64,000 nucleotides of DNA from a virus (lineage: Duplodnaviria > Caudoviricetes): positions 15,828-79,827 of the IMG/VR virus record IMGVR_UViG_2684623153_000002; one strand, given 5' to 3'. The translations under genes and the position numbers were made by a program. Below the pieces are notes generated by a model, which worked only from the letters and a program-made list of their open reading frames with translations, did no database searches and had not been told where the DNA came from. This document shows positions 2,025 through 64,000 of this stretch, in pieces. Within the stretch, counting starts at the first letter, position 1, and every line of letters begins with the position of its first letter.

Positions 2025-2204
2025 TTATCCTCCTTTCTTCGATTCCTTTTCAAGCACTTCTAATTTATGTGCTATTAACCCAAACAAAAAGCCCTTGAAA
2101 CGCCTTGGCGCTTCATAGACCTCTAAGAGTTCAGACGGGGAGTAATGAAGCTCATGCATGCAGTAATACAGATACACAGCCTCTTTGTTCCCGTCTTTTA
2201 TTAG
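2025..2204 (-). CDS. -1 frameshift extension of tail assembly chaperone (gpGT-like)
   Basis: A AAA AAC at 2210-2204 before stop; -1 frame open KLIKDGNKEAVYLYYCMHELHYSPSEL...KKGG* ending just before the tape measure start. Confidence 0.8.
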   Translation of the reverse strand, partial: LIKDGNKEAVYLYYCMHELHYSPSELLEVYEAPRRFKGFLFGLIAHKLEVLEKESKKGG

Positions 2205-2650
2205 TTTTTTGCTTCAGTTTCAAGGTCCTCAATTTCATCTTCAAAACCGTTAACCTCAATGGCTTTGTTTAACCAGTTCGCATATTCACCGCCGACAGAT
2301 AGGACACGTTTTGCCACTTCGACTGGATCTTGGGTGCCGTATGCTTCACGAAGTTCTTTTGATTTGAAGTCTGGGTAAATGGTTGATTCAACTGCGATAC
2401 GTGCATAGAAACGTTGGGAATCCAAGTCTTTCACACGTCCACGACCTTTAACATTTTTGAAAGTCGTGTTTTCTTTCTCCAGTTCATCGATGCGCTCTGT
2501 TGTGATCGCTTTGAATACGAATGGAATCACTTTACCTTCTTTGTCAACGAAACGCTTTGAAATGAATGATTTAACTTCTTCCGCTTCTGTTGTTTGTCCT
2601 GGCATAAAGAATGAAAGATCATATACGTTGTTTGTTTGTTTTTCGCTCAT
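2201..2650 (-). CDS. xkdN: Tail assembly chaperone, XkdN family
   Basis: MSEKQTNNVYDLSFFMPG; near-identical to 51768..52208; between tube and tape measure genes. Confidence 0.9.
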   Translation of the reverse strand: MSEKQTNNVYDLSFFMPGQTTEAEEVKSFISKRFVDKEGKVIPFVFKAITTERIDELEKENTTFKNVKGRGRVKDLDSQRFYARIAVESTIYPDFKSKELREAYGTQDPVEVAKRVLSVGGEYANWLNKAIEVNGFEDEIEDLETEAKN

Positions 2651-2808
2651 GTTTAAAAACTCCCTTTGATTTGTTTTTTTGAATGCAAAAAAGCACATCC
2701 ATTTTTTGAATGTGCTTTCCAATCTTTTCATGTATAATATAATTCGTACAATTGAACGGCTTGCTCAAGGGTGTCTGGCTCATCCCCGATAGGAAGGGGG
2801 TGATGCTC

Positions 2809-2892
2809 ATGTCAACGTTCCAAGCGATTTCCCTAATGCTTTTATTCGGGATGTTTATCCTTGCCTTGTTGACGTATATAAACAAAAAATAG
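2809..2892 (+). CDS. Type I TA toxin, BsrE/BsrH-like 27-aa membrane peptide
   Basis: MSTFQAISLMLLFGMFILALLTYINKK; SD-like AAGGGGGTG; TATAAT at 2733-2738; terminator 2986-3022. Confidence 0.88.
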   Translation: MSTFQAISLMLLFGMFILALLTYINKK

Positions 2893-3100
2893 ACTCCCCT
2901 TGAGCTTTGGACGGTTGAAGGGAAAGTCTATCCTTAAAACTATCTAATTGATAAGCCAGCCCCTTGAAGGGCCTCATTGTACATTGCCGGGATGTTGACG
3001 CATCCTGGCTTCTTTTTATTTTATGCAAATTGCTTTGCATGTAAACACGTTTTCTAAAAAGCTTTGGGTTAAAAGTTAACCCTTTTTTAACCCATTTGCT
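2881..3100 (-). ncRNA. Putative antisense antitoxin RNA (SR5/as-bsrH-like)
   Basis: Minus-strand TGgTATAAT at 3107-3115; hairpin ATAGACT...AGTCTAT followed by a U-run near 2881-2931; convergent overlap with toxin 3' UTR; ends approximate. Confidence 0.72.
2986..3022 (+). terminator. Intrinsic terminator of toxin mRNA
   Basis: GCCGGGATG-ttgacg-CATCCTGGC-TTCTTTTT. Confidence 0.8.
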
Positions 3101-3175
3101 AAAAAAATTATACCATATCGAAGACTGAAATAAAAATAACATATTTTTTAGTCATTCGTAATGCCTTTCCTGAAA

Positions 3176-3619
3176 TTAAAAACTATCCTTCAGTTTTTCA
3201 GGAAGATCAAAATCCTCGAACGTAAACGGAACCTCTTCTTCCAGTGCTTCTGAATCCACATCAAGCCCTGCGATCTTTGCAGAATCAAAGTTCACATCAA
3301 ACAATGTGACACGCTCTGTGCCGCGGCCGGATGATTTGTCATCCAGTACAGCTTGAATGGTGAAGTATGGATCTTGTCCTTTCTTTACATAGTTCAGCAT
3401 GAGCTGCACAAAGCGCGATGTGACTTTATAGAAAGTCGCTGTGCCAGTACCATTCGCACCGGTTGTCTTGTGACCGGTCATACGACGGCCCATGACATTG
3501 ACCTCTGATTTGTTTTTCTCCACGTTCGCTTCAAACGTTTTGATGAACGCCATTTCCTCACCGTCGAGAAAAAGACGCCCTTCCTTACCTGAAATGGTAT
3601 TCTGCGCTTTAAAAGCCAT
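3176..3619 (-). CDS. xkdM: Tail tube protein
   Basis: MAFKAQNTISGKEGRLF; XkdM/YqbM family; paralog at 52736. Confidence 0.93.
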   Translation of the reverse strand: MAFKAQNTISGKEGRLFLDGEEMAFIKTFEANVEKNKSEVNVMGRRMTGHKTTGANGTGTATFYKVTSRFVQLMLNYVKKGQDPYFTIQAVLDDKSSGRGTERVTLFDVNFDSAKIAGLDVDSEALEEEVPFTFEDFDLPEKLKDSF

Positions 3620-3620
3620 C

Positions 3621-4967
3621 TTATTTCACCTCTACATTGAAATAGAATTTTTCAGCTGCATCAACAGGTTGAACAGCTAGATCAATCAAGAAACCGTCAC
3701 GATCTTCATTCAAAGCGATCGTAATATCAGTTTCAGAGTCAAAGCCAGTGATTCCAGATCCGTCTTGCAACTGAGTTAGATATTGCGTAATGAGTGTTTT
3801 CACCAGCTGCAACCCGTCATCAGATGCTGGAATGTCATTGCCATTTGCTTTGCGTAATTTAATTAAATCCTTCAATTCACGTGTGAGATCATTGTTGATC
3901 GCATCAAGCACACGAATGATCTTGTTTTTAGCAAATGTCTTGTTCTTCTCTGTTGTGTAAGTCGTTAAAGAGTTAATGTCCTTCTCAACGCTTACTGTGC
4001 GATCTCTCGCATCAAACGTGAACAAGAATTCGCCTTGTGACAAGCGGTATTCAACTTGATCATTATCAAGACGCTCTAATGTATCAACAGCCCCTTCATA
4101 TTCCACAAAGGTTAACGACTGATTGAAGTTTGCTCCTGCAGATGCACCGGCCACCCATGCAGTTGCTTTGGCTGGCGTGATCTCTGTGCCGTCTTCTAGC
4201 AGAACACCGCTTGTGACATTGATAATTCCTTCATGATCAGCCGGATAGTTTGCCAAAACACCTTGCACCTTACGTCCTTGATCATCACGCAGCCGCTTGA
4301 TGAAAGCCACAAATGTCGCTTTTAACTGCTCGCTAGTGTTATTAGGTAGCGCAATTACGTCAAAGTATTCTGTTTCAGCTTCTTCAAGGAATGCTGTGTA
4401 ATCTGCCACGCTTGGCACGCCGTTTTTCCCGCCGCTTAGTGTTACACCAGCGGTGATTGTCACTTCTCCTTCACCAGAGAACGAAACATATTTGTTTTGC
4501 TTCAGCTCTTTGACATCTTTGACCACCTGTTTATCGACAATGTCTGTACCCACGTAAGTCACCACATCACGCTTGGAGCTATCCAATACGTTTTCAGTGA
4601 CTTGGATTGTCACCTCATTACCTTTCTGTCCGCCATAATTGGCAAGAACGTTGAAATTCTCGCTGATCTGAGCCTTTGCAGGTTCACCCTCATTCAAGCG
4701 ATATAAAAGAACCGTCTGTGCTTTTTTCTTCGCTTCTCGGAAAAGAAGAAGCGACTTGTCATCGATGTTTAATCCGACTTTTTTATTTAAGTCCTCGATG
4801 CCTGAGATAGAGATAAACGTCTTAGGCTCTCCCCAACTCATTGTGATTGGGAGTGCAACGGTGCCGCGATCGCCTAAAGTAATTCGCTGCTGTGCTGTGG
4901 TTTTGAAATTGAAGTAGATACCAGGACGCTTCTTTTCTGTACCTGGCGTGAAAGTACCTCCATTCAT
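3621..4967 (-). CDS. xkdK: Tail sheath protein
   Basis: MNGGTFTPGTEKKRPGIYFNF; XkdK/YqbK family. Confidence 0.93.
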   Translation of the reverse strand: MNGGTFTPGTEKKRPGIYFNFKTTAQQRITLGDRGTVALPITMSWGEPKTFISISGIEDLNKKVGLNIDDKSLLLFREAKKKAQTVLLYRLNEGEPAKAQISENFNVLANYGGQKGNEVTIQVTENVLDSSKRDVVTYVGTDIVDKQVVKDVKELKQNKYVSFSGEGEVTITAGVTLSGGKNGVPSVADYTAFLEEAETEYFDVIALPNNTSEQLKATFVAFIKRLRDDQGRKVQGVLANYPADHEGIINVTSGVLLEDGTEITPAKATAWVAGASAGANFNQSLTFVEYEGAVDTLERLDNDQVEYRLSQGEFLFTFDARDRTVSVEKDINSLTTYTTEKNKTFAKNKIIRVLDAINNDLTRELKDLIKLRKANGNDIPASDDGLQLVKTLITQYLTQLQDGSGITGFDSETDITIALNEDRDGFLIDLAVQPVDAAEKFYFNVEVK

Positions 4968-4969
4968 GC

Positions 4970-5194
4970 TTAAACCTCCTTAGACAAAAAAGCATCAATC
5001 TGCTTCTTTGCTTCTGTTTTTGTAATTGGTTGATCTTTGATATAAAAAAGAGCACCTTCAAGGATTTCAGGCTTTACGCCAAACAATTCCTTGCTGTGCT
5101 CTTTCAAGGCTTCAAATGAAAATGCCGCTTCTTTAGTAAGAACAGGTGCGGCTTTTTCTTCTTTCACCTGTGATTCATTTTTAGTCTTGCTCAC
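4970..5194 (-). CDS. YqzN/YkzM-like small phage protein
   Basis: Position before sheath gene; ITKTEAKKQIDAFLSKEV; paralog at 54531. Confidence 0.8.
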   Translation of the reverse strand: MSKTKNESQVKEEKAAPVLTKEAAFSFEALKEHSKELFGVKPEILEGALFYIKDQPITKTEAKKQIDAFLSKEV

Positions 5195-5636
5195 GTTTGA
5201 TCACCCCGTCTGAAAAATTTATGTCGTCAAGGCTTGGCTGCTCGTCTCGGTTGTACCAATAAGCACTATCCCATGTGAGGACAATCGTTGCCACGCCTTG
5301 ATCAGCAATTCTTGTCTCTGCCCTCTTAATGCGAACATATTGATCAAGCAGTTCACCTTCTACACTGACCATCTGAATGATATTCCGATCCGCTGATAAG
5401 GCATCTACAATCGATTCAGCTGCATCATGAGCCTGTCCAGAGTCCTTGTGAAACACTTTAACATGCAGCGTATATGTTTTGAGGAAAGTTGACACAGTAT
5501 CGTTCCTTGTATTGACCCATGCTGATGGAAAGTACATCGATGGGATTTGAAACTGTTCAGGAATCTCTTTTTCATATACTTTCACCGGAAACCGCTTGTA
5601 ACAATAATTCATGATGGCTCCGACTTCTTGATTCAT
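5181..5636 (-). CDS. xkdJ: Tail terminator-like protein, XkdJ/YqbJ
   Basis: Synteny; similarity to 54730..55185. Confidence 0.8.
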   Translation of the reverse strand: MNQEVGAIMNYCYKRFPVKVYEKEIPEQFQIPSMYFPSAWVNTRNDTVSTFLKTYTLHVKVFHKDSGQAHDAAESIVDALSADRNIIQMVSVEGELLDQYVRIKRAETRIADQGVATIVLTWDSAYWYNRDEQPSLDDINFSDGVIKREQD

Positions 5637-5640
5637 TTAA

Positions 5641-6147
5641 TCATCTCCCAAAATGCCGATCAATCCATTGCTGCAGCTTGCGGTCCAATGATTGTTCAAA
5701 CATCTGTCCAAAGATGGCCAACGCATTATCCCAATAGCCGCTGCCCTCAACCCACTGGAACTTTAGAAGCATTCCTGTTTCAGCGTTTGAATCGTATTCA
5801 AACCGGTCACCAACCCATCTGCCAGGAACCCAACGCCTGTCCAGATTCTTGGAGGGATCAATCGTAAAGTGCCCATCATTTGTGTATGATGCGTATTCTA
5901 AGTTGGTCCCAACATCCAACGTCAGACCGCCACTGCTCATCGAAAAGACGTTTTCTTGGTCTCCCTTTTGGAATGAGTTGAGCAAACGGCGAGCATCCAC
6001 CGTTTTTGTTCGGATAACTTCATCTTGAACGATGTCTAGGAACTCATAACCCATCGCTTCCAACCACTCTTCATATTCTGCTTGCAAGCCACCATTAACA
6101 GCTGCATTCAAATCCTCAATAAACTGATCTAAACCATCAATCCTCAA
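5641..6147 (-). CDS. xkdI: HK97 gp10-like neck protein, XkdI/YqbI
   Basis: VGTNLEYASYTNDGH motif. Confidence 0.85.
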   Translation of the reverse strand: MRIDGLDQFIEDLNAAVNGGLQAEYEEWLEAMGYEFLDIVQDEVIRTKTVDARRLLNSFQKGDQENVFSMSSGGLTLDVGTNLEYASYTNDGHFTIDPSKNLDRRWVPGRWVGDRFEYDSNAETGMLLKFQWVEGSGYWDNALAIFGQMFEQSLDRKLQQWIDRHFGR

Positions 6148-11214: not shown

Positions 11215-12740
11215 TTGCGAATCTCCTCTAGTTCATCCCTAACATCTTTTAAGAGATGGATCAGATTCTCCTGGGAACCCGCAGACTTTTGAAGAACCGT
11301 ATCAAAAAAGCTTGTTGATGCCTTCGGTTTCGCTTCGATTGGTCGGTGATATTCTTCCTCTGGCCATTCTTCAAGTGTCTTACCAAGAATACGGCCAGCC
11401 AGATCTCGCAGATCGTTAGGTGAAACTGCTCCTGCTTGAATAAACGGTGTAAGAACCTTTGCAATTTCGAGCGGATCACGAAAGTCAGGACCATTCAAAA
11501 TGAGCCGCACATGCCACAAATCAAGATCAGGAAGAAAGAGTGTATTGAGCTTGCCAGTGATGATCATTCTTTCCGGCTGGAATACCTGTTCTTCTGTCGT
11601 TTTTCGAGCGGTGTCAGCTGTGGCCTTGTTATAATCCTGTGATTCGCCTGTGTAGATCGGCGGCAGACGAAAAGAAGAACGTATCTTGTTTCTCGTCTTC
11701 TCATCATATTCAAGGAACAGCGCATCCTCCTGAAGAATCTCGGCCAGTGATTTTATTTCAACTTTCACAGGTGCTGGGTCTTCGTCATTGCTTACTTCGT
11801 CTTTTTTCTTTTTCGGAATCCCTTCGACTTCAAGCAAAAGGAATTTATGTGCATTGTCTGAACCTTCGATGCCATTCATGTACTCTTGCAGCTGTTCATA
11901 GGATGCTTCAGATAGCATTCCATTCTCTACAGTAATTGCAGCCGGCACATGCCGCCCTTGTTTAAAGTACAGATAGTTCAGTTCTTCAGCTTTGCGGGCT
12001 CCATACATATTGACGATGTTACCAATCCAACGAGGAACACCATATGTACCGCTGCCGATCTTAAAGTGAATGACTTCGCTTGCTGCAAGTTCAGGTGGAG
12101 TTTCTTCGTTGTACTCTCCAGTAGAAGAATTCATTGTTCTTGGATCGCCGTATTCCTTAAAGAAAACTTTTTTTGTGTTGACCTGTTGCACATACTTTCT
12201 GAAACGCTTCATTCTTTTGAGAGATTTGACTTGACCGTTTTCTGTGTATCGGAATTCGACATCAACGGGATCGCTCAGCTTACAAACACGTAAGTATTGT
12301 GCATCCAGATATTCAATGCCTGCAGGCTTCCCTGTACCTTCTCGAAGCACTTCGACAAATCCATTACCTGTTTTCTCTCGGTCTTCTATTACATAACCAA
12401 GAACCACTTCGGCTGACTCATCATAGTTCATATATCTGACGAACTCTTCAAGTTGTGTCCATTCTTTCTCAGCTTCGTCTTTCTTTGCTTCTTTTGCATT
12501 CTCAGCGTTGAAATCAAAGACATATTCGATGCCCAAGCCGAAACCTAGAATGTTTGTTTTATACGCATCGATGCATTGCTGAAGAATGGTAGAATACTCA
12601 GCTATTTGTTTAAGTTCTGTGATATTGTACGGCGGCTCGATCAATCCATCAGCCGCATAGTTAAAACTATCATCATGAATTTGTTTCGTAGTTTGAGAGA
12701 TGTCTGCTTTAAACACAGTAGCTTTCACATGTTTTGTCAT
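11211..12740 (-). CDS. xkdE: Portal protein, XkdE/YqbA
   Basis: Follows large terminase; similarity to 58507..59964. Confidence 0.92.
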
Positions 12741-14056
12741 AGCCTTCTCATCGACCTCCTATCTCTGTTCGGACGTGTCCGCTCTTTAGGCTGCTCTTTC
12801 AGATCCGTTACCTCATAATCATCTAGCGCATACCAGATGGCTGAAAAAGTATGAGGGTCAATCTTAAACTCGTCCTCTATGATGTTACCGTTCTTGTCTG
12901 TTTTGTATGTGAGTGGCTGAAGCTCATAGATCGTGTTTTTACATGAATCTGAACATATGATTTTCTTGAACCGTTTGATCTTTTTGGTGTACTGCAAGCG
13001 TGATCCTTGGAACTTATGAGCGGCCACCATGTTGTATCCCATCTTCCTGAAGTATGCGATTGTTTTCGGTTCAGCTGCATCTGCTTTGATCAGCTCTTTT
13101 GTTTTGGCAAATTCGATGAGCTCTTGTACAGTTTCATCATCGGTTGTGCCCTTTTGATAATACTCCCAATAGATGTATAGATATTTCTTCTCGTGATCGA
13201 CAGCCAGTCGAATCAAAGCGTTATATGACTCTACGAAACCAAAGTCCATGCCCGCTCTAAGTAAAGGCCGATTTATATTTGAGATGGCCAGCATCACATC
13301 TTCATGCGGCTGCACCTCGAATTGTGGCAGCACACGAATTCCATTTATGCCAAAATGACCTTTTCTCGCAATTCGATAAAGGTCGGGATCATATTCTTTC
13401 AGTTCATCCAGCTGCTTAATATAGCTGACCGGAAGGAATAAGTTGTCTTCAGCTGTAGAATGATGATAGTACGTATCGTTGATAGCGATCGTTCGCTCTT
13501 TATATAACCTTTCATCATCCAGGATAAATCGGTTGTTTTGATCATCCTTAAAGAAATGTCTGTACGTCCAATTATCCTGACCGACAGGGTTCGTCGATAG
13601 GATCATGTGCAGTTGCAATGTTGGATGACGCAAACGACCAAGCAGCTCCTTGAATCCCTCGTACTTCACTTCTGAACATTCCTCAATCCAAATGATCGAG
13701 ATATTGTTGATCGACTTCAGCTTGGCTGGCATGTCCAAGCCTTTGAAAATGATCCGGCTGCCATTGTGAAATTTAAGCATGAGCGGTGATGTCCGGCATT
13801 GAATGACATGATCAAGTCCAAGATCATTCACGATCTCTTCAAACAGCGAAAAGGTTGAATCCCTGTGTGTGTCATAGACTTCACGAATCACAAGAGCGGT
13901 TCGCTTTTCATCTAACAGCTTCAGAATTAGCTTCAGGGCAATATGATAGCTTTTGGAGGAGCCGTAACCGCCCACCAAGAACTGAAACTTCTGATCCCAG
14001 TCAAAAAGAAAGTCCTCAAAATGTGGATTGACTTCCTTCTCCATCATTTGAACCAT
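12737..14056 (-). CDS. xtmB: Terminase large subunit, PBSX family
   Basis: Walker [13 protein letters not shown] Walker B, GMDFG nuclease motif. Confidence 0.95.
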
Positions 14057-14940
14057 CAGTCATCACCTTTATTCTTCCGCTTAATTGTTATTTGTACAGA
14101 ATCATCAACAGGACGTGCGGTAATCCGCTCCAGCTCTGCTTCTCGTGTTCTATTAGCGAGATCGAGACCACGCAGCCTCAATTCATATTCAGACATAGTT
14201 TTCATTATGTCGACTTTCTGCCTAATGGCTTTATCACGTTGTGCGGTCACACGTGTCAGAGCATCTTCTATGCTCAATATCTTCTCTAGTAGCGGTGAGT
14301 CTGTCTCCTCAATCTGGACCACAGCCAGACGCTCATTAGTTATTGGTACTGATTTAATCAGGCCATTCTTATCTGGAGCCTGTACAACGTCTTTCATCTT
14401 CCGCATTTGCTGCAAGACTGTCCGCTGCTTATCAGTCAATCCATTCTCATACTTATTGATTAAGCGCATCATTCTTGTTTCACGAACGCTCAATAATCGT
14501 ATTGATAGATCAATTTGGTACAGAGGATCGGTCTCAACTTCATTAAAAAGCTTCTGTTCCTTTTCATCCATGTACTCAAACATGATCGTTTCATATTCAC
14601 CGGTCTTGAATGAATTCTTGTTGCCTTTAGGAGCTGCGCCACCCCTATTGCCTTTAGCATTTTGATTACCAGGTGGCGCTTTACCCCCTTTATTACCTCT
14701 GGCGTTTTTACTCCCTTTCGGAGCGCCAGGGCGTTTAGTAACGTTACCATTGGATTTCCCTTTTGGTTTAGTAACGTTACCATTCAATTTCTCATCCCAA
14801 GAGTCTTGGTTCTTCCATTTGCGGATAAGTGTTTGGGAACACTCTAATTCTTCAGCAATGTCTTTCAATAAGCGGGTTCCATTGCTTTCCTTCCACAATT
14901 GGAATGCCTGATCTCTTTTAGGATTTCTCGGTCTAGCCAT
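14056..14940 (-). CDS. Terminase small subunit
   Basis: N-terminal HTH ([19 protein letters not shown]), GAPxGNxNA repeats, directly before terL. Confidence 0.9.
14733..14784. repeat. 19-bp direct repeat pair with palindromic core (possible pac region)
   Basis: GTTTAGTAACGTTACCATT at 14733-14751 and 14766-14784. Confidence 0.7.
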
Positions 14941-16653: not shown

Positions 16654-16707
16654 TGTTGTTTCCTCCTATCAAACAAATGATGCCGCCCAGGAGGCGACAT
16701 CAGCTGC

Positions 16708-17061
16708 TTACTTGATGTAAAATTCGTTTGTGTAGAATGTACCGATCGTTTCAACATGATTACCATGTTTGTCATAACGCTCTACATCAACCTTGAATCG
16801 ATACGTACCTTTCTTGTTATCAAGCGATTCCTTGATACTGAACTCATCGTACCGTTTTTCACTTGGGTTGAGTTCGTTCGGTGAATTCGTTTTGATCGTA
16901 ACCCATTTTCCTGCAACTTTTCGTTGAGGAATAAGGTTTGGCCCACAAATGTAATCATTGTGATTCTGAACCGCAACAACCACAACCTTGTCCTTCCCTA
17001 AAATGTGATTCGCTTTTTTTGGATTAGCAGATACACCAAATTTTGATGCCATGCTCATCAT
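16708..17061 (-). CDS. Hypothetical beta-rich protein (paralog-like to 20712..21122)
   Basis: ORF with RBS; shared motifs QRKVAGKW, TYRFKV, YTNEF. Confidence 0.7.
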   Translation of the reverse strand: MMSMASKFGVSANPKKANHILGKDKVVVVAVQNHNDYICGPNLIPQRKVAGKWVTIKTNSPNELNPSEKRYDEFSIKESLDNKKGTYRFKVDVERYDKHGNHVETIGTFYTNEFYIK

Positions 17062-17143
17062 CTCCCTTTTTAAATTTTTGCGCTCCTATCCCTCACCAAA
17101 GCACCTGCAGCCATACACCCAAAAGACGACTGTTCCCATCAAA

Positions 17144-17332
17144 TCAGCGTTTTCTTCGGACCCGGCCGCCTTGTCGTTGATACGTTTCACGTCTCGTTCC
17201 CATGATTTCTTCCCAATCTCGCTTTGTTATCGGATCAGCATTGCTCTTCTTCTTTCGATTAGAACCAGGAGCAATGCGCTTTAATTGCTTCGTTGTTTCT
17301 ACAGATAAAGAATCTCTGATCTTCATGTTCAT
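17144..17332 (-). CDS. Small basic phage protein
   Basis: AAGGAG RBS; DWEEIMGTRRETYQRQGGRVRR. Confidence 0.72.
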   Translation of the reverse strand: MNMKIRDSLSVETTKQLKRIAPGSNRKKKSNADPITKRDWEEIMGTRRETYQRQGGRVRRKR

Positions 17333-17454
17333 ACTCTCCTTGCCGAATAAGCACCACCTTACGCTATTCGCTTAAATAGATTTTGCAATGATGACTACAC
17401 TCCGAGAGGATGCCAAGTACAGTCATTCATCAAGTAAAATGAAAAACTGTCCTC

Positions 17455-17540
17455 GATACGGCTGCCGCAGACCAGCTGCTATCCAGGCTCAGAATGTCCC
17501 TCTCGTATGGCCACATTCCTCAACACCTTTGTTCCGTATC
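17455..17540 (-). ncRNA. Candidate kink-turn three-way-junction RNA in late leader
   Basis: GAUACGG/CCGUAUC closing stem; AGGU-GUU-GA-GGAAUGU...ACAUUCU-GA-GCCU k-turn; GCAG/CUGC hairpin. Confidence 0.55.
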
Positions 17541-17577
17541 CAGATACGCCATTGATAAGGGAAAGGCGCGTCTCCCA

Positions 17578-17650
17578 ATAAAAAAGCGGACACCAATCAA
17601 GGCACTTAGAGTGCTCAATGATCAGCGTCCGCAGGTTCTTCCTTCTGGAC
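17578..17650 (-). promoter_or_regulatory. Terminator/antiterminator element (copy A)
   Basis: GTCCA..CCTGCGGACGCTGATCA..TGATTGGTGTCCG-TTTTTT; homologous to 62614-62685. Confidence 0.7.
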
Positions 17651-17680
17651 AAAATATTCACGTTCGTTTTGCTTGTCTCT

Positions 17681-17745
17681 ATCATACGATGATCCACTTA
17701 GGAAAAAAGGTCCCCTTTTTATCCCCCTTTTGGTCGGTTTTTTCA
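17681..17745 (-). promoter_or_regulatory. Putative ArpU-dependent late promoter
   Basis: -10 TATGAT at 17681-17686, no canonical -35, upstream direct repeats AAAAAGGGG x2. Confidence 0.55.
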
Positions 17746-17821
17746 AAAGATATTTAAGTACCAAAAAGCCCTTACATATTTCTCCTTATCTAATATTATG
17801 TCATGATTACAATTTTTTTAG

Positions 17822-19186
<1,365 letters not shown>

Positions 19187-19219
19187 TATTAAAGAATTGG
19201 CAAAGGCATGTGAGTAAAT

Positions 19220-19564
19220 ATGGCTAGAAACTGCGGATGCGGAAGAAGAGTTTATAAAGAAGGAGATTTCATTGTTAAAACGAGCTGCCCTGAAATCACT
19301 TTAGAAATTATCCAAAAGGAAGATTTGTGTTTTCAAGTTAAAGGAAAAGTATCATGCAATACACTTCCTTTACAACATGTGAATGTAAATTTATCAAGTT
19401 CATCTGAAAGTATTTTAAAACCTCAAATATCTACTACTGATAAAGATGGAGGATTTTCATCAGAATTAAATTTATTAGAGAATTCAGCCAAGGAAGTTGA
19501 AGTTACAGCAACTGTGATATCTAATAAATCACCTGTAAAAAAGTCAATAACAATCAACTTTTAG
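19220..19564 (+). CDS. Small Ig-like protein with Cys-containing N-terminus, collagen operon partner
   Basis: MARNCGCGRR; STTDKDGGFS Ig-like motif; 33 bp after collagen gene. Confidence 0.7.
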   Translation: MARNCGCGRRVYKEGDFIVKTSCPEITLEIIQKEDLCFQVKGKVSCNTLPLQHVNVNLSSSSESILKPQISTTDKDGGFSSELNLLENSAKEVEVTATVISNKSPVKKSITINF

Positions 19565-37658: not shown

Positions 37659-37731
37659 GGGGCATTAGCTCAGCTGGGAGAGCGCTACGCTGGCAGCGTA
37701 GAGGTCAGCGGTTCGATCCCGCTATGCTCCA
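37659..37731 (+). tRNA. tRNA-Ala (GGC), CCA not encoded
   Basis: GGGGCAT/ATGCTCC acceptor stem with G3:U70; anticodon arm CTACG-CTGGCAG-CGTAG; GGTTCGATCC T-arm. Confidence 0.96.
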
Positions 37732-51588: not shown

Positions 51589-51771
51589 TTATTTCCCTCC
51601 TTTCTTTGCTTCTTTTTCTAGCATGTCTAGCTTGTAGCTGATGAGTCCGAATAGGAGTGCTTTGAACGGTCTTGGTGATTCGTATAAATCTAGGAGTTCA
51701 GATGGGGAGTAGTGAAGCTCGTGCATGGCGTAATATAAAAACACGGCTTCTTTATCCCCATCTTTTATTAG
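51589..51771 (-). CDS. -1 frameshift extension of XkdN
   Basis: A AAA AAC at 51777-51771; -1 frame KLIKDGDKEAVFLYYAMHELHYSPSEL...* conserved with the 2025-2204 copy. Confidence 0.8.
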   Translation of the reverse strand, partial: LIKDGDKEAVFLYYAMHELHYSPSELLDLYESPRPFKALLFGLISYKLDMLEKEAKKGGK

Positions 51772-52208
51772 TTTTTTGCTGCTTCTTCTAAATCTTCAAT
51801 TTCGTCTTCAAATCCGTTGATTTCAATGGCCTTGTTTAACCAGTTTGCGTATTCACCGCCGACAGATAATACACGTTTTGCGACTTCAACTGGATCTTGT
51901 GTGCTGTAGGCTTCTCTTAGTTCCTTCGAGCGGAAATCTGGATAAATAGTCGATTCAATGGCAATACGTGCGTAGAAGCGCTGGCTGTCTAAGTCTTTCA
52001 CACGGCCTCTTCCTTTGACATTTTTGAAGGTCGTGTTTTCTTTTTCCAGTTCATCAATGCGTTCAGTTGTAATGGCTTTAAAGACAAAAGGAATGACATT
52101 CCCTTTTTTATCAACAAAACGCTTAGAGATTGGCACTTTGACCTCTTCCGCTTCTACTGTTTGTCCTGGCATAAAAAATGAAAGATCAAATGTTTGTTTT
52201 TCGCTCAT
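51768..52208 (-). CDS. xkdN: Tail assembly chaperone
   Basis: DLSFFMPGQ; synteny. Confidence 0.9.
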   Translation of the reverse strand: MSEKQTFDLSFFMPGQTVEAEEVKVPISKRFVDKKGNVIPFVFKAITTERIDELEKENTTFKNVKGRGRVKDLDSQRFYARIAIESTIYPDFRSKELREAYSTQDPVEVAKRVLSVGGEYANWLNKAIEINGFEDEIEDLEEAAKN

Positions 52209-52366
52209 GTTTAAAAACTCCCTTTGTTATGTTTTTTTAAATGCAAAAAAGCACATCCATTTTTGAATGTGCTTTCCAATCTTTTCATGTATAATTTAAA
52301 TTGTACAATTGAACGGCTAGCTCAAGGGTGTCTGGCTCATCCCCCGATAGGAAGGGGGTGATGCTC

Positions 52367-52450
52367 ATGTCAACATTTCAAGCACTAATGTTAATGCTTG
52401 CTTTCGGGTCATTTATTATAACCCTGTTGACGTATATAGACAAAAAATAG
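52367..52450 (+). CDS. Type I TA toxin, BsrE/BsrH-like
   Basis: MSTFQALMLMLAFGSFIITLLTYIDKK. Confidence 0.9.
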   Translation: MSTFQALMLMLAFGSFIITLLTYIDKK

Positions 52451-52662
52451 ACTCCCCCTTGAGCTTTGGTAGGTAAAAGGGAAGTCTATCCTAAAGTATC
52501 CTATTCGATTAGCCAGCCCCTTGAGGGCCAAATTTTACATTGCCGGGATGTTGACGCATCCTGGCTTCTTTTTATTTTATGCAAAGTACTTTGCATGTAA
52601 ACATATTTCTAAGAAACTTTTTGGGGTTACACAGTAACTCTTTTGTAGCTACCCTGTAACTA
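52440..52662 (-). ncRNA. Putative antisense antitoxin RNA
   Basis: Minus-strand TGgTATAAT 52669-52677; terminator hairpin at toxin stop; same layout as copy 1. Confidence 0.72.
52542..52579 (+). terminator. Toxin mRNA terminator
   Basis: Identical hairpin to 2986-3009. Confidence 0.8.
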
Positions 52663-52735
52663 TGAAAAATTATACCATATCGTTGAATAAAATAAAAACA
52701 ACATATATTTTCGTCACTTGTCTGCCTTTTGTTCA

Positions 52736-53179
52736 TTAAAAGGAATTCTTCAGCTTTTCAGGAAGATCAAAGTCCTCGAACGTAAATGGCACTTCTTCTT
52801 CAAGTGCTTCTGAATCGACATCCAGTCCAGCAATTTTAGCTGAATCGAAGTTGACATCAAATAATGTTACACGCTCAGTACCTCGGCCTGATGATTTATC
52901 GTCAATCACCGCTTGAAGAGTGAAATAAGGATCTTCCCCTTTTCTCACATAGTTGAGCATTAATTGAACGAAACGAGATGTAACTTTATAGAATGTGGCC
53001 GTTCCTGTTCCATTTGCTCCTGTTGTTTTATGACCAGTCATTCGGCGGCCCATCACGTTGACTTCTGATTTGTTTTTCTCCACGTTTGCTTCAAACGTTT
53101 TGATAAAGGCAAGCTCCTCACCTTCTAAGAAAAGACGACCCTCTTTACCTGAAATTGTATTTTGCGCTTTAAAAGCCAT
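52736..53179 (-). CDS. xkdM: Tail tube protein
   Basis: XkdM sequence. Confidence 0.93.
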   Translation of the reverse strand: MAFKAQNTISGKEGRLFLEGEELAFIKTFEANVEKNKSEVNVMGRRMTGHKTTGANGTGTATFYKVTSRFVQLMLNYVRKGEDPYFTLQAVIDDKSSGRGTERVTLFDVNFDSAKIAGLDVDSEALEEEVPFTFEDFDLPEKLKNSF

Positions 53180-53180
53180 C

Positions 53181-54527
53181 TTACTTCACCTCCACATTGA
53201 AATAGAATTTTTCTGCTGCATCTACTGGTTGAACAGCTAGATCGATGATAAAACCATCACGATCTTCATTGAGACCGATGACAATATCTGTTTCTGAGTT
53301 AAAGCCTGTAATGCCGCTGCCATCTTGAAGCTGTGTGAGATACTGTGTAATCAGTGTTTTCACAAGCTGTACTCCATCATCAGATGCTGGAATGTCATTG
53401 CCATTGGCTTTGCGTAATTTAATCAGATTTTTTAATTCAAACGTTAAATCATTGTTGATGGCATCAAGCACACGAATGATTTTATTTTTCGCCATTTGCT
53501 GATTCTTTTCAGCTGTGAAGCTTGTTAAAGAGTTAATATCTTTTTCAACACTCACCGTGCGGTCTCTCGCATCAAAGGTGAAGAGGAACTCCCCGTGGGA
53601 TAATCGGTATTCTACTTGATCATTATCAAGGCGTTCTAATGTATCTACTGCTCCTTCGTATTCAACAAAGGTGAGTGACTGATTGAAGTTTGCACCTGCA
53701 CTTGCTCCTGCAACCCAAGCTGTTGTTTGAGCAGGTGTTAGTTCTGTTCCATCTTCCAGCACAACACCACTTGTCACATTGATAATGCCTTCTTGGTCAG
53801 CTGCATAGTTCGCCACAACGCCTTGCACCTTACGTCCTTGCTTATCACGTAGACGCTCGATAAATGAAGCGAAGGTTGCTTTTAATTGCTCACTATTATC
53901 GACTGGGAGCGCAATGACATCAAAGTATTCTGTTTCTGCTGCTTCTAGGAAAGCTGTATAATCTGCGACACTTGCCACACCGTTTTTTCCGCCGCTTAGT
54001 GCCACACCAGCTGTGATAAGTGCTTCACCTTCACCAGAAAATTGAACATATTTGTTTTTCACAAGATCTTTGACATCCGTCACAATCTGCTTATCCACAA
54101 TATCTGTGCCAAGATAAGTAATGACGTCACGTTTTGTGCTGTCGAGTACATTTTCTGCCACTTGGATGGTGATCTCATTTCCCTTTAGACCGCCATAATT
54201 GGCTGTGGCCACAAAGTTTTCTGAGATTTCAGCTTTGGCTGGCTCCCCTTCGTTTAGACGGTAAAGCAAGACTGTTTGCGCTTTTTTCTTTGCTTCACGG
54301 AAAAGAAGAAGCGACTTGTCATCAATATTGAGTCCAACCTTTTTATTTAAGTCTTCCATATTGGAAACGGAAATAAAGTTTTTTGGTTCTCCCCAGCTCA
54401 TCACAAGAGGAAGTGCCACCGTACCTCGATCGCCTAAAGTAATTCGCTGCTCTGCTGTTGTTTTAAAATTAAAGTAAATGCCAGGACGCTTTTTCTCTGT
54501 ACCTGGTGTAAATGTGCCTCCGTTCAT
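53181..54527 (-). CDS. xkdK: Tail sheath protein
   Basis: XkdK sequence. Confidence 0.93.
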   Translation of the reverse strand: MNGGTFTPGTEKKRPGIYFNFKTTAEQRITLGDRGTVALPLVMSWGEPKNFISVSNMEDLNKKVGLNIDDKSLLLFREAKKKAQTVLLYRLNEGEPAKAEISENFVATANYGGLKGNEITIQVAENVLDSTKRDVITYLGTDIVDKQIVTDVKDLVKNKYVQFSGEGEALITAGVALSGGKNGVASVADYTAFLEAAETEYFDVIALPVDNSEQLKATFASFIERLRDKQGRKVQGVVANYAADQEGIINVTSGVVLEDGTELTPAQTTAWVAGASAGANFNQSLTFVEYEGAVDTLERLDNDQVEYRLSHGEFLFTFDARDRTVSVEKDINSLTSFTAEKNQQMAKNKIIRVLDAINNDLTFELKNLIKLRKANGNDIPASDDGVQLVKTLITQYLTQLQDGSGITGFNSETDIVIGLNEDRDGFIIDLAVQPVDAAEKFYFNVEVK

Positions 54528-54530
54528 CCT

Positions 54531-54743
54531 TTAAACCTCCTTGGACAAAAAAGCATCAATGTGCTTTTTCGCTTCTGTTTTTGTAATTGGTTGATGTTTG
54601 ATATAAAAAAGAGCACCTTCAAGGATTTCTGGTTTAACCCCAAAAAGATCCTTACTGTGCTCCTTTAAGGCTTCAAATGAAAAGCCAAATTCTTTTTCTT
54701 CGCCAGCTGTTTGGGCAGGCGCTGCTTTTTTAGTCTTGCTCAC
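54531..54743 (-). CDS. YkzM-like protein
   Basis: Synteny; paralog of 4970..5194. Confidence 0.8.
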   Translation of the reverse strand: MSKTKKAAPAQTAGEEKEFGFSFEALKEHSKDLFGVKPEILEGALFYIKHQPITKTEAKKHIDAFLSKEV

Positions 54744-55185
54744 GTTTGATCACCCCATCTGAAAAATTGATGTCTTCAAGGCTCGGTTGTTTGTCTCGGT
54801 TGTACCAATAACTGCTATCCCACGTCAGGACAATCGCTGCTACGCCTTGATCTAACATTCTGGTTTCCACTCTTTTTATGCGGACATAATCATCAAGCAC
54901 CTCTCCATCTTCACTCATCATCTGAATCATTTGACGATCAGCAAGCAATGCATCAACAATGATTTCTGCCGCGTCATGCGCTTTTTCTGAATTTATATGA
55001 AACACTTTCACTTGCAGCGAATAAGATTTCATAAACGTAGATACCGTATCTGGACCGCTGATCACTGTTACGGGCGGCACATAAACAGATGGTACTTGAA
55101 AATGCTCTGGCAAAAGTCGATCATACATTGTTACAGGAAAGTGTGTGTAAATATAATGCATGATTGCCCCGACTTCTTGATTCAT
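54730..55185 (-). CDS. xkdJ: XkdJ
   Basis: MNQEVGAIM start after GGAGG. Confidence 0.82.
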   Translation of the reverse strand: MNQEVGAIMHYIYTHFPVTMYDRLLPEHFQVPSVYVPPVTVISGPDTVSTFMKSYSLQVKVFHINSEKAHDAAEIIVDALLADRQMIQMMSEDGEVLDDYVRIKRVETRMLDQGVAAIVLTWDSSYWYNRDKQPSLEDINFSDGVIKREQD

Positions 55186-55189
55186 TTCA

Positions 55190-55687
55190 TCACCTCCCAA
55201 AATGTCGATCGAACCAGCTTTGAAGCTTTCGATCCAGCGACTGCTCAAACATTTGCTCATAGAGCATGACAGCATGATCCCAATAGCCATTTCCATCTAT
55301 CCATTGAGAAGCAAGCATCATTCCTGTCTTTGCATTCGGATCATATTCAAAGCGGCTGCCAGCCCACCTGCCAGGCACCCATCTTCGCTCTCCACTTGAA
55401 GAAGTAGCATGTCCATCATTGACATAGGAGGCATACTCAAGCTGGGTTCCCACTTCCAGCGTGAGACCACCTTTTGACATGAGAAAGTGATTCTCCTTGT
55501 CTCCTTGCGTAAAGGAGCTTAGAAGCCGGCCTGTATCGACAGCATTCTCCTTGATTAGCTCATCCTGAATGATGTCCAAAAGCTCTATGCCCATGTCCTC
55601 TAGCCAAGCTTGATATTCTGCCTTTAAGCCGCCGGCACACGCTGTTTCCAGCTGTGAAAGCAGACGGTCAAGTCCATCAATTTTCAT
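55190..55687 (-). CDS. xkdI: HK97 gp10-like XkdI
   Basis: VDTGRLLSS, EYASYVNDGH. Confidence 0.85.
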   Translation of the reverse strand: MKIDGLDRLLSQLETACAGGLKAEYQAWLEDMGIELLDIIQDELIKENAVDTGRLLSSFTQGDKENHFLMSKGGLTLEVGTQLEYASYVNDGHATSSSGERRWVPGRWAGSRFEYDPNAKTGMMLASQWIDGNGYWDHAVMLYEQMFEQSLDRKLQSWFDRHFGR

Positions 55688-58506: not shown

Positions 58507-59964
58507 TTATTTCGTCAGCTGGTCCGGCTCTGGTTGAGGCTTTTCTTCAGCTGATTTCATGCGGCTTTCTAAAGGTCGGTGATACAGTTCCTCAGGCCAT
58601 TCCTCTAGCGTCTTTCCAAGAATTCTTCCTGCTAGATCGCGCAAATCGTTAGGTGACACTGCCCCCGCCTGAATAAACGGCGTCAGTACCTTCGCAATCT
58701 CTAATGGGTCTCTAAAATCAGGACCATTTAATAGAAAACGGACATGCCACATATCAAGATCCGGCAGGAAGAGAGTATTGAGTTTTCCTGTGATGAGGTG
58801 CCGTTCTGGCTGAAATACCTGCTCTTCTGTTGTTTTACGCGCTGTATCTGCCGTCGCTTTGTTATAGTCTTGAGACTCACCTGTGTAAATTGGCGGCAGA
58901 CGAAACGCAGAACGGATTTTGTTTCTTGTTTTTTCATCGTATTCTAAAAAGAGCGCATCTTCTTGCAGGATCTCGGCTAGAGATTTGAAGTTTACTTTGA
59001 CATTTGAGACATCTTCTTCTCCCGTTAACCCTTTTTCTGTCGGCAGACCTTCAACTTCAAGCAATAGAAATTTATGCGCGTGATCAGATCCTTCAATATC
59101 ATCCATATAGTCTTGAAGCTGCTGATAAGAGGATTCTGACAACATGCCATTTTCGACAATGATGGCACCTGGTACATGCCGCCCTTGTTTAAAATAAAGA
59201 TAGTTCAGTTCCTCTGCCTTGCGTGCTCCGTACATATTGACGATGTTGCCAATCCAGCGGGGAATCCCATACGTTCCACTGCCAATTTTGAAATGAATCA
59301 CTTCTGTTGCGCGAAGCGGCTCTGGTGTGGTGTCATCATACTTGCCTGTTTCACAGTTCAAAATGCGCGGATCACCATACTCCTTAAAGAAGACTTTCTT
59401 TTCGTTGATCACCTGCACATATTTGCGGAATCTTTTCTTTCGATTCATTGTCTTTAATTCGCCATTTTCTGTGTAGCTGAATTCGACGTCGACTGGCTCA
59501 CTAAGCTTGCAAATGCGGATATGAAGCGCATCTAAATACTCGATTCCAGCTGGCTTTCCTTGTCCATCTCTCAGCACCTCTAAAAAACCATTGCCCGTTT
59601 TCTCTCGGTCTTCCAGGACATAGCCAAGAATCACATCAGCGGACTCATCATAGTTCATGTACTTCGTAAACTCTTCAAGTCTTGTCCATTCCTTTTCTGC
59701 GGCTTTCTTTTTTGCCGGTTTTACACCTTCTGCATTAAAGTCAAAGGCGTATTCCACCCCAAATCCAAAGCCTAAAATATTCGTTTTGTACGCATCAATA
59801 CATTGCTGAAGAATGGTTGAATACTCTGCCATGCTTTTTAATTCATTGATGTTGTATGGCGGGGGAACAATGTCATCTTTTTCATAGGAAAATTCATCTG
59901 CATACATTTGTTTTGTATGATCAGACATGTTTGCCTTCATAATCGTTGCTTTCAATTGTTTCAT
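58507..59964 (-). CDS. xkdE: Portal protein
   Basis: PBSX-type portal after terL. Confidence 0.92.
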
Positions 59965-61274
59965 TGTACGGACCTCCTCTCTCTGTTTGGACGGACACGC
60001 TCTGAGGCGGTCTGTTTCAAATCCGTCACTTCATAGTCATCCAGCGCATACCAGATGGCTGATAATGTGTGTGGGTCGATTTGAAATGCATCTTCCTCTA
60101 AACGTCCATCCTTATCTGCCTTATAGGTCAGTGATTGAAGTTCATAGATTGTGTACGGACAAGCATCAGAGCAAATGATTTTCTTAAACCGTTTGATCTT
60201 TTTCGTATACTGCAAACGCGAGCCTTGGTACTTATGTGCTGCCACCATTTGAAATCCACGCTGCCGAAAATAGTGAATGGTTTTAGGCTCTGCTGCATCG
60301 GCTTTGATGAGTTCCTTTGATTCAATGAACTCTCTTAGGTCAACAGCTGTTTCATCATCTGTTTTCCCGCGATCGTAATATTCCCAGTAAATATATAAGT
60401 ACTTTTTTTCATGGTCGACGGCTAATCGAATGAGCGCATTGTATGATTCAACAAATCCAAAATCCATGCCTGCTCGTTTTAGCGGCCGGTCCATCTGCTG
60501 AATCGCTTCTAATACATCAGCATGATTTCTTACCTCAAATTGAGGAAAAACCTTTGTTCCATTGATGCCAAAATAGCCCTTCCTCGCAATTCGATAGAGG
60601 TCTAGGTCGTATTCTTTCAGCTCATCCAGCTGCTTCACATAGCTTTTAGGGAGAAATAGGTTATCTTCCGCTGTGGAGTGATGATAGTACGTATCCTTGA
60701 TCACAACGGTGCGTTTTTTGTATAAGGTTTCGTCATCTAGGACAAATCGCTTCAGCTGTTCATCTCGAAAAAAATGTCTGTACGTCCAATTATCTTGACC
60801 AACAGGATTGGTCGATAACATCATATAAAGCGGTAAAGACGGGTGCCTCAGCCTTCCAAGCAGCTCTTTAAAGCCTTCATAAGAAACCTCTGAACACTCC
60901 TCAATCCAAATAATCGAGATGTTGTTAATCGATTTTAATTTCTCAGGCTTGTCCAGCCCTTTGAATAAGATGCTGCTGCCATTTCGAAACGTCAAGGCAA
61001 GCGGCGAACTGCGGCACTTCACCACATGATCGATGCCAAGATCGCTGACGATCTCTTGTAATAGAGAAAAGGTTGATTCGCGGTGCGTATCATAGACTTC
61101 TCGAATGACAAGTGCTGTCCGTTTTTCTTCCAGCAGCTTTAAAATGAGTTTTAATGCAATGTGATAGCTTTTAGAGGAGCCGTAACCGCCTACTAAAAAT
61201 TGAAACTTCTGATTCCAATCGAATAGAAAATGTTCAAAGTGAGGATTGACTTCTTTTTCAATCAATGGCGTCAT
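59961..61274 (-). CDS. xtmB: Terminase large subunit
   Basis: GGYGSSKS; GMDFG. Confidence 0.95.
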
Positions 61275-63740: not shown

Positions 63741-64000
63741 TTTGTTCGTCTCCCCTTTTCAAATAAATGCTCTTCCTTTAAAGAATTACTCATTTTGTGT
63801 AACTTTTGATCAAAAAAAAGCTCTTGAACACCCCTATTTAGCAAATCCGCAATATGCTTTGCTATTTCTAAGCTGGGCTTCGTTCTGCCCATTTCTATAT
63901 TTGCATAGCCGCTCGTGTACTTATACCCTAACTTTTTCGCCATATAGGTTTGTGTTTTCCCTTGTAAAATGCGTTCTTCTCGTAAATTTTCAAGTTTCAT
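63737..64000 (-). CDS. Cro-like HTH protein
   Basis: TQTYMAKKLGY..GYANIEMGRTKPSLE. Confidence 0.85.
   Translation of the reverse strand: MKLENLREERILQGKTQTYMAKKLGYKYTSGYANIEMGRTKPSLEIAKHIADLLNRGVQELFFDQKLHKMSNSLKEEHLFEKGRRTK

Follow-up and report, generated by a model that had tools for sequence, protein, structure and literature searches.

The window analyzed here, a stretch of 64,000 nucleotides of viral DNA, very probably carries a genuine RNA element, that is, a conserved, non-coding structured leader RNA of the ArpU-dependent late operon of Bacillus-group prophages. The match of covariance model R1 (17581-17377, minus strand; 236.4 bits, E = 4.9e-58) gives the element a length of about 205 nt, of which positions 17455-17540, singled out in an initial annotation of the same DNA, represent only the core. 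The comparison of homologous sequences shows an RNA whose predicted parts are a 5' H-type pseudoknot, a three-way junction with a kink-turn (k-turn) arm, and the two hairpins P5 and P6, with the loops of P6 and of the k-turn arm predicted to pair in a kissing helix of 7 to 8 bp (Table 1). Structurally, the element represents a new class of leader RNA in phage late operons, and it is a candidate new RNA family. To our knowledge, explanations of late-gene control in the temperate phages of Gram-positive bacteria currently invoke activator proteins of the Ltr/ArpU/RinA kind alone; the element adds, between the activator and the packaging and lysis genes, a large and strongly conserved RNA with a predicted tertiary fold, and it occurs in the model phage phi105 as well as in PBSX-like prophages of many Bacillus species.

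Table 1. Features of the late control region and of the structured RNA (positions of the window; paired strands are joined by "with")
Feature	Position	Strand	Basis or remark
ArpU-family late transcriptional regulator, 127 aa	19679-20062	-	TIGR01637, phrog_248
Big_1 protein	19220-19564	+	cassette between regulator and control region
Collagen-repeat protein	17834-19186	+	same cassette
Tandem A-rich GGGGGAT/GGGGAC boxes	17710-17727	-	candidate ArpU-binding repeats, late promoter
-10-like hexamer TATGAT	17681-17686	-	putative late promoter, without good -35
Leader intrinsic terminator	17580-17632	-	hairpin 17632-17586 and U-run 17585-17580; dG -27.5 kcal/mol
Whole structured RNA element	17377-17581	-	R1 match; 62 aligned homologues
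5' H-type pseudoknot	17546-17576	-	P0 and P1 pairing in alignment
P0, GGGA/UCCC	17576-17573 with 17562-17559	-	pseudoknot
P1, GCGCC/GGCGU	17569-17565 with 17550-17546	-	pseudoknot
Pseudoknot loop UUAUCAAU	17558-17551	-	nearly invariant; consensus UUAUCAA
Three-way junction	17451-17544	-	closed by P2 and its 3-bp extension
P2 extension, 3 bp	17544-17542 with 17453-17451	-	found de novo by RNAalifold
P2, GAUACGG/CCGUAUC	17540-17534 with 17461-17455	-	closing stem
k-turn arm	17485-17528	-	P3; sequence, RNAfold, alignment
C-stem, AGGU/GCCU	17528-17525 with 17488-17485	-	k-turn arm
k-turn bulge, GUU	17524-17522	-	k-turn arm
G.A/A.G	17521-17520 with 17490-17489	-	k-turn arm
NC stem, GGAAUG/CAUUCU		-	k-turn arm
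Loop of k-turn arm, 17 nt	17513-17497	-	k-turn arm
Loop segment CGAGAGGG of k-turn arm	17498-17505	-	5' strand of kissing helix
P4, short third arm, GCAG-CUGGU-CUGC	17467-17479	-	88.5% paired
P5, variable hairpin, ACAGU...ACUGU	17419-17450	-	alignment
P6, hairpin, UGUACU/AGUGUA	17396-17421	-	alignment
UCCUCUCG in the 14-nt P6 loop	17410-17403	-	3' strand of kissing helix
P7, hairpin (CGAAUAGC...GCUUAUUCG), and Shine-Dalgarno AAGGAGAG of first late ORF	17334-17370	-	read from sequence
orf62, small basic protein, first gene after element	17144-17332	-	phrog_20406, E = 2.3e-20
Intrinsic terminator in late operon	16670-16702	-	after orf117, before methylase/terS/terL; dG -16.5 kcal/mol
terS	14056-14940	-	late operon
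terL	12737-14056	-	late operon

The core had been annotated as a k-turn three-way-junction RNA, and its stems are borne out on the minus strand, where the closing stem, both arms and the junction strands read as claimed; moreover, the minimum-energy structure of this 86-mer, as calculated with RNAfold, is the fold that had been proposed. It is the extent that had to be revised, since the three-way junction stands as the center of the RNA of about 205 nt, which includes the 5' pseudoknot and the loop-loop pairing as well. The absence of a match to SAM-I, lysine, c-di-GMP-II or T-box RNAs was confirmed by cmscan against Rfam 15, in which the ribozyme, EAR and pRNA families gave no covariance-model match either. 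In particular, the window had no match at the gathering scores, the region 17100-17900 at E <= 10 gave four unrelated matches at chance level, none of them on the element, and the copies of the element in the L296, L003 and L261 loci gave no match at E <= 1. Furthermore, no description of the element was found in the main texts of open-access papers and preprints, where it may go by another name. The covariation described below, the lack of an Rfam match and the position in the leader support the earlier proposal of an undescribed late non-coding RNA or cis-regulator upstream of the packaging genes.

The fold energy of the single sequence is not unusual (for the 86-mer, z = -1.35, with 20 of 200 shuffles folding as well; for the 205-mer, z = -1.57, not significant), so that the 86-nt motif, judged on one sequence, could have arisen by chance, and the minimum-energy fold of the 205-mer differs from the conserved fold. 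We aligned 62 homologues and fitted them to nested helices. In this alignment, 95.6% of the pair cells hold standard pairs, compared with 32 to 51% when the partners are slid by 1 to 3 columns, and double changes are present in 23 of the 44 pairs, a value reached by none of 500 shuffles (mean, 13.6), with 160 cells carrying double changes against 34 in the shuffles. The independent lineages number about ten, so that these covariation counts overstate the number of events; in addition, the shuffles ignore the relatedness of the rows, and the alignment of P2 and P4 is poor in the class II rows. RNAalifold alone recovered P0, P2 together with its covarying 3-bp extension, P3b and P6. Frequent G-U wobbles, namely, UG in 18 to 22 rows in P6, GU in 20 rows in the kissing helix and those of P1 in L285, keep the pairing intact, as would be expected of helices in RNA and not of a DNA palindrome. 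Protein coding was considered and rejected, as any given frame is open throughout the element in at most 5 of the 62 sequences, and length changes of 1 and 2 nt occur within its conserved blocks.

At the 5' end, the two interleaved helices of the putative pseudoknot enclose a loop in which UAUCAA is kept in 61 of the 62 rows. P0, which lies outside the structure of the model, is 99.2% paired, with double changes in three of its four pairs, and P1 is 89.2% paired, with double changes in two of five pairs in addition to the wobbles. The following three-way junction is closed by P2 (97.6% paired; double changes in 4/7 pairs) and by its extension, whose pair 40-177 is CG in 31 rows and UA in 21. 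An alternative hairpin, CGUAUC/GAUACG, located upstream of P2 and examined as a possible switch, was discarded, being broken in L080 and in the A9Y type, where P2 stays paired. The junction strands are rich in purines on the minus strand, reading AACAA(A), (U)GGAUA and GGCAG, and include a single-stranded A-run in J2/3 that is near-invariant; as a whole, these strands differ between class I and class II, the two main variants described below. The short third arm, P4, is the weakest helix of the RNA; the L170 and L261 types (CGC/GCG) and class II (GCA/UGC) retain a hairpin there, but with different sequences.

The canonical k-turn layout that had been read from the single sequence holds across the homologues, in which the GA/GA pairs are retained and every helix covaries. 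The bulge has 3 nt in 62 of 62 rows, columns L1 to L3 being filled in all of them, with variation at position L2 (U in 41 rows, A in 20 and C in 1), and the G.A/A.G positions are kept in 61 or 62 rows (1b G, 62/62; 2b A, 61/62; 2n G, 62/62; 1n A, 62/62). Within the C-stem, 51 rows have GC and 9 have AU at pair -2b:-2n, and at pair -1, UG (50 rows) alternates with CG (11 rows); four of the six NC-stem pairs show double changes, with AU becoming GC or CG in 9 to 10 rows. Thus, both flanking helices covary and, as far as the sequences can tell, the bulge, the G.A/A.G pairs and the helices conform to a k-turn, which would bend its arm back.

The loop of this arm carries the 5' strand of the kissing helix, which is 98.5% paired and, like P0, lies outside the structure of the model. 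Its two strands change in step among the variants, with the combinations CGAGAGG/CCUCUCG, CGGGAGG/CCUCCCG and CAGGAGGA/UCCUCCUG, to which CGGGAGG/CCUCCUG and CAGGGGGA/UCCUCCUG have to be added. P6, which exposes the 3' strand, is 96% paired, and double changes affect five of its six pairs; in the window, the P6 stem can be extended to about 16 bp, thereby overlapping P5, and the P6 stems of class II are entirely different (AAAUCU/AGAUUU and AUUUUC/GAAAAU). P5 differs in length and sequence between types, and at its pair 136-172, CG and UA occur in 20 rows each. Beyond the element, P7 and the Shine-Dalgarno sequence are conserved in window-type and class II copies; the phi105 types keep only the 5' half of P7 (AAGCGAWUAGC..AAGGAG).

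When a 551-nt query was compared with phi105, rho14, vB_BteM-A9Y and yong1, the identity (80 to 84%) was confined to a block of 181 nt, which in phi105 is 82.6% identical, even though the regulator protein is only 54% identical; the core of the element is therefore far better conserved than its neighbors. In these four phages, the block is located just after an ArpU-family gene and 2 to 3 kb upstream of HNH, terS and terL. The position in phi105, about 2.3 kb before cos, led us to reject the element as a cos or pac site. The phi105 record KY197768.1 has an extra match in a separate 75-nt stretch, on the other strand and at another position. The "hypothetical proteins" annotated over the element, such as PHI105_00235, are spurious.

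Pattern scans and nhmmer revealed the block in about 35 IMG/VR prophage contigs, and it is also found in genomes of Bacillus pumilus, B. safensis, B. halotolerans, B. tequilensis, B. changyiensis and other Bacillus, in phi105-like and PBSX-like prophages. A permissive IMG/VR pattern scan returned 118 stretches, mostly chance, of which nhmmer kept 22 new loci; exact-word scans reached only close relatives, and the divergent members were recovered only by covariance-model searches of genomes. In the GTDB family to which the B. halotolerans genome belongs, 33 of 91 genomes gave matches with R1, and a broader model, R2, found the element in 7 of 151 sampled genomes of the order, a figure that describes the sample and is not a prevalence. 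Overall, two covariance models cover about 70 members, among which no fewer than three architectures can be distinguished. The window type belongs to class I, as do the phi105, A9Y, L170 and L261 types. Class II (for instance, L296, L302, L305, L307, L308 and L297) has the same 5' domain together with a k-turn arm, a P5 and a P6 hairpin, with stem sequences that mostly differ from those of class I. In the minimal form (L250, L253 and L293), the loop of the k-turn arm is reduced to about 6 to 8 nt and the P5/P6 region is replaced, the kissing loop and the P5/P6 region being lost together; it follows that some phages can do without the kissing loops and P5/P6.

The gene order around the element is that of a late operon. 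The regulator of the window scores 72.7 bits against TIGR01637 phage_arpU (cutoff, 43.1), compared with 126.3 bits for the phi105 protein; it also matches phrog_248, a transcriptional activator family, and is 54% identical to the regulators of the phi105 group. A search of PDB sequences with the regulator HMM returned nothing useful. Of 53 loci, 40 have a regulator homologue ahead of the element, as do 6 of 8 order-level loci; for 10 of the 13 loci missing from the former count, the upstream flank is shorter than 2.1 kb, and the other three (L080, L202 and L233) show none despite a flank of at least 3.3 kb. On the minus strand, the element is followed by P7 and the Shine-Dalgarno sequence, orf62, orf117, a terminator, a ParB-methylase gene, terS and terL. 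Homologues of orf62 follow it in window-type, class II and some order-level loci, and other genes do so in the phi105 types. In all loci, the element is co-oriented with and contiguous to the operon that it heads.

Repeats of the AAAA-GGGGRAC type lie upstream of the element in most of the types examined. By analogy with the Ltr repeats described in PMC3753634, the GGGGGAT/GGGGAC boxes may be ArpU-binding repeats; the same paper places the repeats of the Ltr superfamily distal to the ltr genes, with a terminator between ltr and the terS promoter. The hexamer TATGAT is kept in 14 of 17 aligned window-type loci, with one change in the other three, and reads TACGAT in class II; transcription would start at this putative late promoter. 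Conservation across window-type and class II loci extends to the whole control region, consisting of repeats, -10 hexamer, short leader and terminator, and most types examined possess a promoter-like region ahead of the element. In the phi105 types, it takes the form TTGAAA-17-TATCAA and ends 8 nt before the element, a position that would make the RNA the very first part of the transcript. The hairpin of the leader terminator is present in the minimum-energy fold, and the changes in its stem keep the pairing. Among the 60 copies with enough flank, 29 have a terminator just upstream of the element, corresponding to 19 of 19 window-type copies, 10 of 10 class II copies and 0 of 31 others. The terminator at 16702 is conserved in most window-type loci, with energies between -12.8 and -21.2 kcal/mol.

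As regards function, we tentatively put forward, by analogy with known systems, that the element may be a cis-acting processive antitermination leader. In this mechanism, the RNA, like put, EAR and conAn2, would act in cis on the polymerase that transcribes it, so that late transcription would pass the intrinsic terminators between the late promoter and terS/terL, and the element may cooperate with the ArpU-type protein encoded next to it. Each of the 34 distinct contexts with 2 kb or more of downstream sequence has one or more strong intrinsic terminators on the same strand within 3 kb and before terS, a count that refers to element-bearing operons only, the average in shuffled 3-kb pieces being 0.07 terminators. 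Since late transcription must pass these terminators, antitermination is the reading that they favor. The high conservation of the core relative to its neighbors is a further point for it. Moreover, the element shows the traits of an antitermination RNA, in that it lies in sense orientation close to a promoter (itself predicted from sequence), opens a long operon and is followed by terminators. In PMC8191782, put, EAR and conAn2 are presented as promoter-proximal cis-acting RNAs in long operons of mobile elements, and only these three are named as processive antitermination RNAs of the cis-acting type; if the element proved to be an antiterminator, it would be a fourth kind. A cis-acting RNA cannot suppress a terminator that is transcribed before it, so that in the 29 of 60 copies with an upstream terminator something else must carry the polymerase through. 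An ArpU protein alone could explain the read-through, and further promoters downstream of the terminators could serve the late genes.

The likeness to conAn2 of pLS20 and other conjugative plasmids of Gram-positive bacteria (PMC8191782) is one of context, because both elements head a long operon of a mobile element in Bacillus and relatives, adjoin a small regulatory gene, precede several intrinsic terminators and act, or are presumed to act, in cis. However, conAn2, which we compared by its description, spans 260 to 600 bp, is characterized by two stem-loops and a GC-rich tract and shares its transcript with conAn1 (PMC8191782), whereas our element is associated with a prophage ArpU-family regulator that has its own terminator instead of conAn1, and is predicted to have a k-turn junction, a pseudoknot and a kissing loop. 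The put RNA of HK022 and the EAR RNA of the Bacillus eps operon are structured cis RNAs that act on RNA polymerase, put being promoter-proximal and EAR internal to its operon. Like put, the element belongs to a phage operon, but it is larger, has another architecture and, unlike the put arrangement, has an upstream terminator in about half of its copies; with respect to both put and EAR, no Rfam match of the element was obtained at E <= 10. The window type also shares with the lambda pR'-tR'/Q system the succession of late promoter, short leader, strong terminator and late genes, with a regulator gene just upstream. However, lambda is without a large structured RNA after tR', and ArpU proteins have not been described as Q-like factors; in PMC3753634, they figure as activators that bind repeats upstream of terS.

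It is possible to extend this scheme to a two-part late switch, in which a k-turn-dependent RNA at the 5' end of the transcript would load onto RNA polymerase with the ArpU-type protein and/or a host k-turn protein of the L7Ae type such as YlxQ, and the polymerase would then resist termination over the 20-kb late operon. The ylxQ gene is located in the nusA operon. We consider this version quite unlikely; were it true, the ArpU-type "activators" would belong to an antitermination machinery assisted by RNA, and the element would be the first antiterminator RNA based on a k-turn.

Among the alternatives to antitermination, a leader with a sensor function, whose RNA would bind a metabolite, ArpU, the orf62 product or a host k-turn protein, is the one to which we give the most weight, although we judge it unlikely. 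Its alternation between two states, one having P5 and a short P6 and the other a long P6, would control the translation or the stability of the first late genes. In SAM-I, lysine and c-di-GMP-II aptamers, a k-turn brings a loop back for a tertiary contact, and the architecture of the element is like that of such large riboswitch aptamers; in these RNAs, in T-box Stem I and in the element, the k-turn arm of a multi-helix junction appears to be redirected for long-range loop pairing. The near-invariance of the single-stranded UAUCAA and of the J2/3 A-run fits a sensor, as do the mutual exclusion of P5 and extended P6 in class I, each with compensatory support, the resemblance of the kissing strands to a Shine-Dalgarno sequence and its anti-sequence, and the conserved hairpin and Shine-Dalgarno sequence after the element. 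However, different from the k-turn riboswitches, there is no conserved expression platform after the element, in that neither a conserved terminator nor a sequestering helix follows it directly, and the downstream gene differs by type, with orf62 in window-type, class II and some order-level loci and other genes in the phi105 types. Furthermore, P5 and P6 do not overlap in class II, and the differences between the junction strands of the two classes disfavor a ligand pocket shared at the junction. If the element were a sensor, the late development of these phages would be tied to a signal not yet known.

The complementary loops on separate arms could also pair between molecules and yield oligomers, as would suit a trans-acting or self-assembling RNA released from the leader, with a role in packaging or assembly similar to that of phi29 pRNA or as a decoy for host defense. 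The phi29 pRNA and the element are both Bacillus phage RNAs with a three-way junction and two mutually complementary loops, which in pRNA interact hand in hand, and the element adjoins the packaging genes; in some loci (L170 and L080), a terminator on the same strand, 134 to 322 nt downstream, would delimit a discrete RNA. However, pRNA is an independent early transcript of podoviruses, whereas the element is part of a late-mRNA leader in siphovirus- and myovirus-like prophages, always co-oriented and contiguous with its operon. The element has no pRNA-like match in Rfam and no conserved terminator directly after it, and the minimal variants do without both loops, all of which makes a trans-acting RNA distinctly unlikely.

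Very unlikely, in our opinion, is a self-cleaving or processing element that would set the 5' end of the late mRNA and, in window-type and class II copies, remove the leader terminator. Several small ribozymes common in prophages combine a compact junction with tertiary loop-loop contacts, and the compact, highly conserved junction of the element, with its predicted loop-loop contact, recalls them. In phi11 and 80alpha, processing of the late transcripts has been reported (PMC3753634). Against processing stand the lack of a ribozyme match in Rfam 15, the fact that no candidate cleavage site was identified and the variation of the junction strands between classes.

Finally, that the conserved block acts only as DNA, as an ArpU operator or promoter whose helices are palindromes and whose TATCAA (17556-17551) is a -10 box, is highly improbable, since, despite an invariant TATCAA preceded by a varying base and replaced by TATAAT in one degenerate copy, and despite the resemblance of the 5'-end GGGAGAC to the upstream GGGGAC boxes, the G-U wobbles of P1 in L285, of P6 and of the kissing helix would be mismatches in DNA, compensatory pairing spans about 100 nt, the roughly 200 nt involved far exceed the needs of a promoter, and a separate promoter-like region lies upstream in the types examined. 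In particular, TATCAA within the element was rejected as the -10 box of the late promoter on the grounds of the wobble-preserving and compensatory changes in P0 and P1.

As for transcription, the RNA contigs that we could compare with the window derive from relatives and carry neither strand nor end information. A contig of run X7 spans 17514-17744 and, because it continues upstream of the putative promoter, may represent DNA or read-through. The contigs of run X4 do not cover 17264-17875, which is not evidence of absence; one of them, with a depth of 87 compared with 7 to 24 for its neighbors, spans 16701-17243 and ends at the 16702 terminator, which we regard as no more than a weak hint.

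In the window, the leader RNA at the head of the late (packaging and lysis) operon is preceded by a strong predicted intrinsic terminator, which is placed after the putative late promoter and before the RNA element itself. Such a leader terminator 5' of the element was found in 29 of the 60 copies, comprising all the window-type copies and all those of class II; the phi105-like copies all lack it. Inside the late operon, there is a further terminator at 16702, and in the public RNA-seq run X4 a contig of a relative, corresponding to positions 16701 to 17243 of the window (depth, 87), stops at this site. The contigs located 3' of it show a depth of 7 to 24, compared to 87 before the terminator. 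The contig end and the drop in depth give a weak hint of partial termination at this terminator.

The first gene 3' of the element in the window-type copies, in class II, and in some distant members is orf62, which might be a working partner of the RNA. On the other side, the insertion encoding the collagen-repeat and Big_1-domain proteins lies between the gene of the late regulator ArpU and the late control region, a site which in other loci is occupied by other insertions. Moreover, two annotated hypothetical proteins, PHI105_00235 of phi105 (positions 2891 to 3064 of its locus, L001) and rho14_51, overlap the 5' part of the element, and they are probably not genes.

The minimal variants of the RNA (L250, L253, and L293) still have the pseudoknot, the three-way junction, and the k-turn, and in them the loop of the k-turn arm and the P5/P6 region are missing together.

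Features of the window in the surroundings of the element and in the late regions
Feature	Position	Strand	Remarks
BsrG (Rfam) match, full-length	2747-3008	+	164 bits
orf62, small basic protein	17144-17332	-	phrog_20406
Predicted intrinsic terminator	17580-17632	-	dG ~-27 kcal/mol
Collagen-repeat protein (450 aa) and Big_1-domain protein	17834-19564	+	Insertion, strand opposite to ArpU gene
tRNA gene	37659-37731	+	62 bits; between two prophage-like regions
BsrG (Rfam) match, full-length	52304-52564	+	150 bits

The window, whose end at 64000 is the end of the record, contains two related PBSX-like late regions, with 79% DNA identity over 3.8 kb between positions 2095 to 5832 and 51662 to 55381 and with terL products (12737 to 14056 and 59964 to 61274) that are 79% identical. 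Each of the two BsrG matches adjoins a tail sheath and tube module of its own. Within the window, the RNA element is found in the first late region only; the second operon was covered as far as terL (~61.3 kb), short of its head.

Multiple copies occur in one Bacillus genome, G004, which carries nine. Four of them are located on a single 88-kb contig (C8; its loci include L271 and L272) at a spacing of ~20.4 kb. This arrangement has the appearance of a small phage-like element in concatemeric form, or of an artefact of the assembly.
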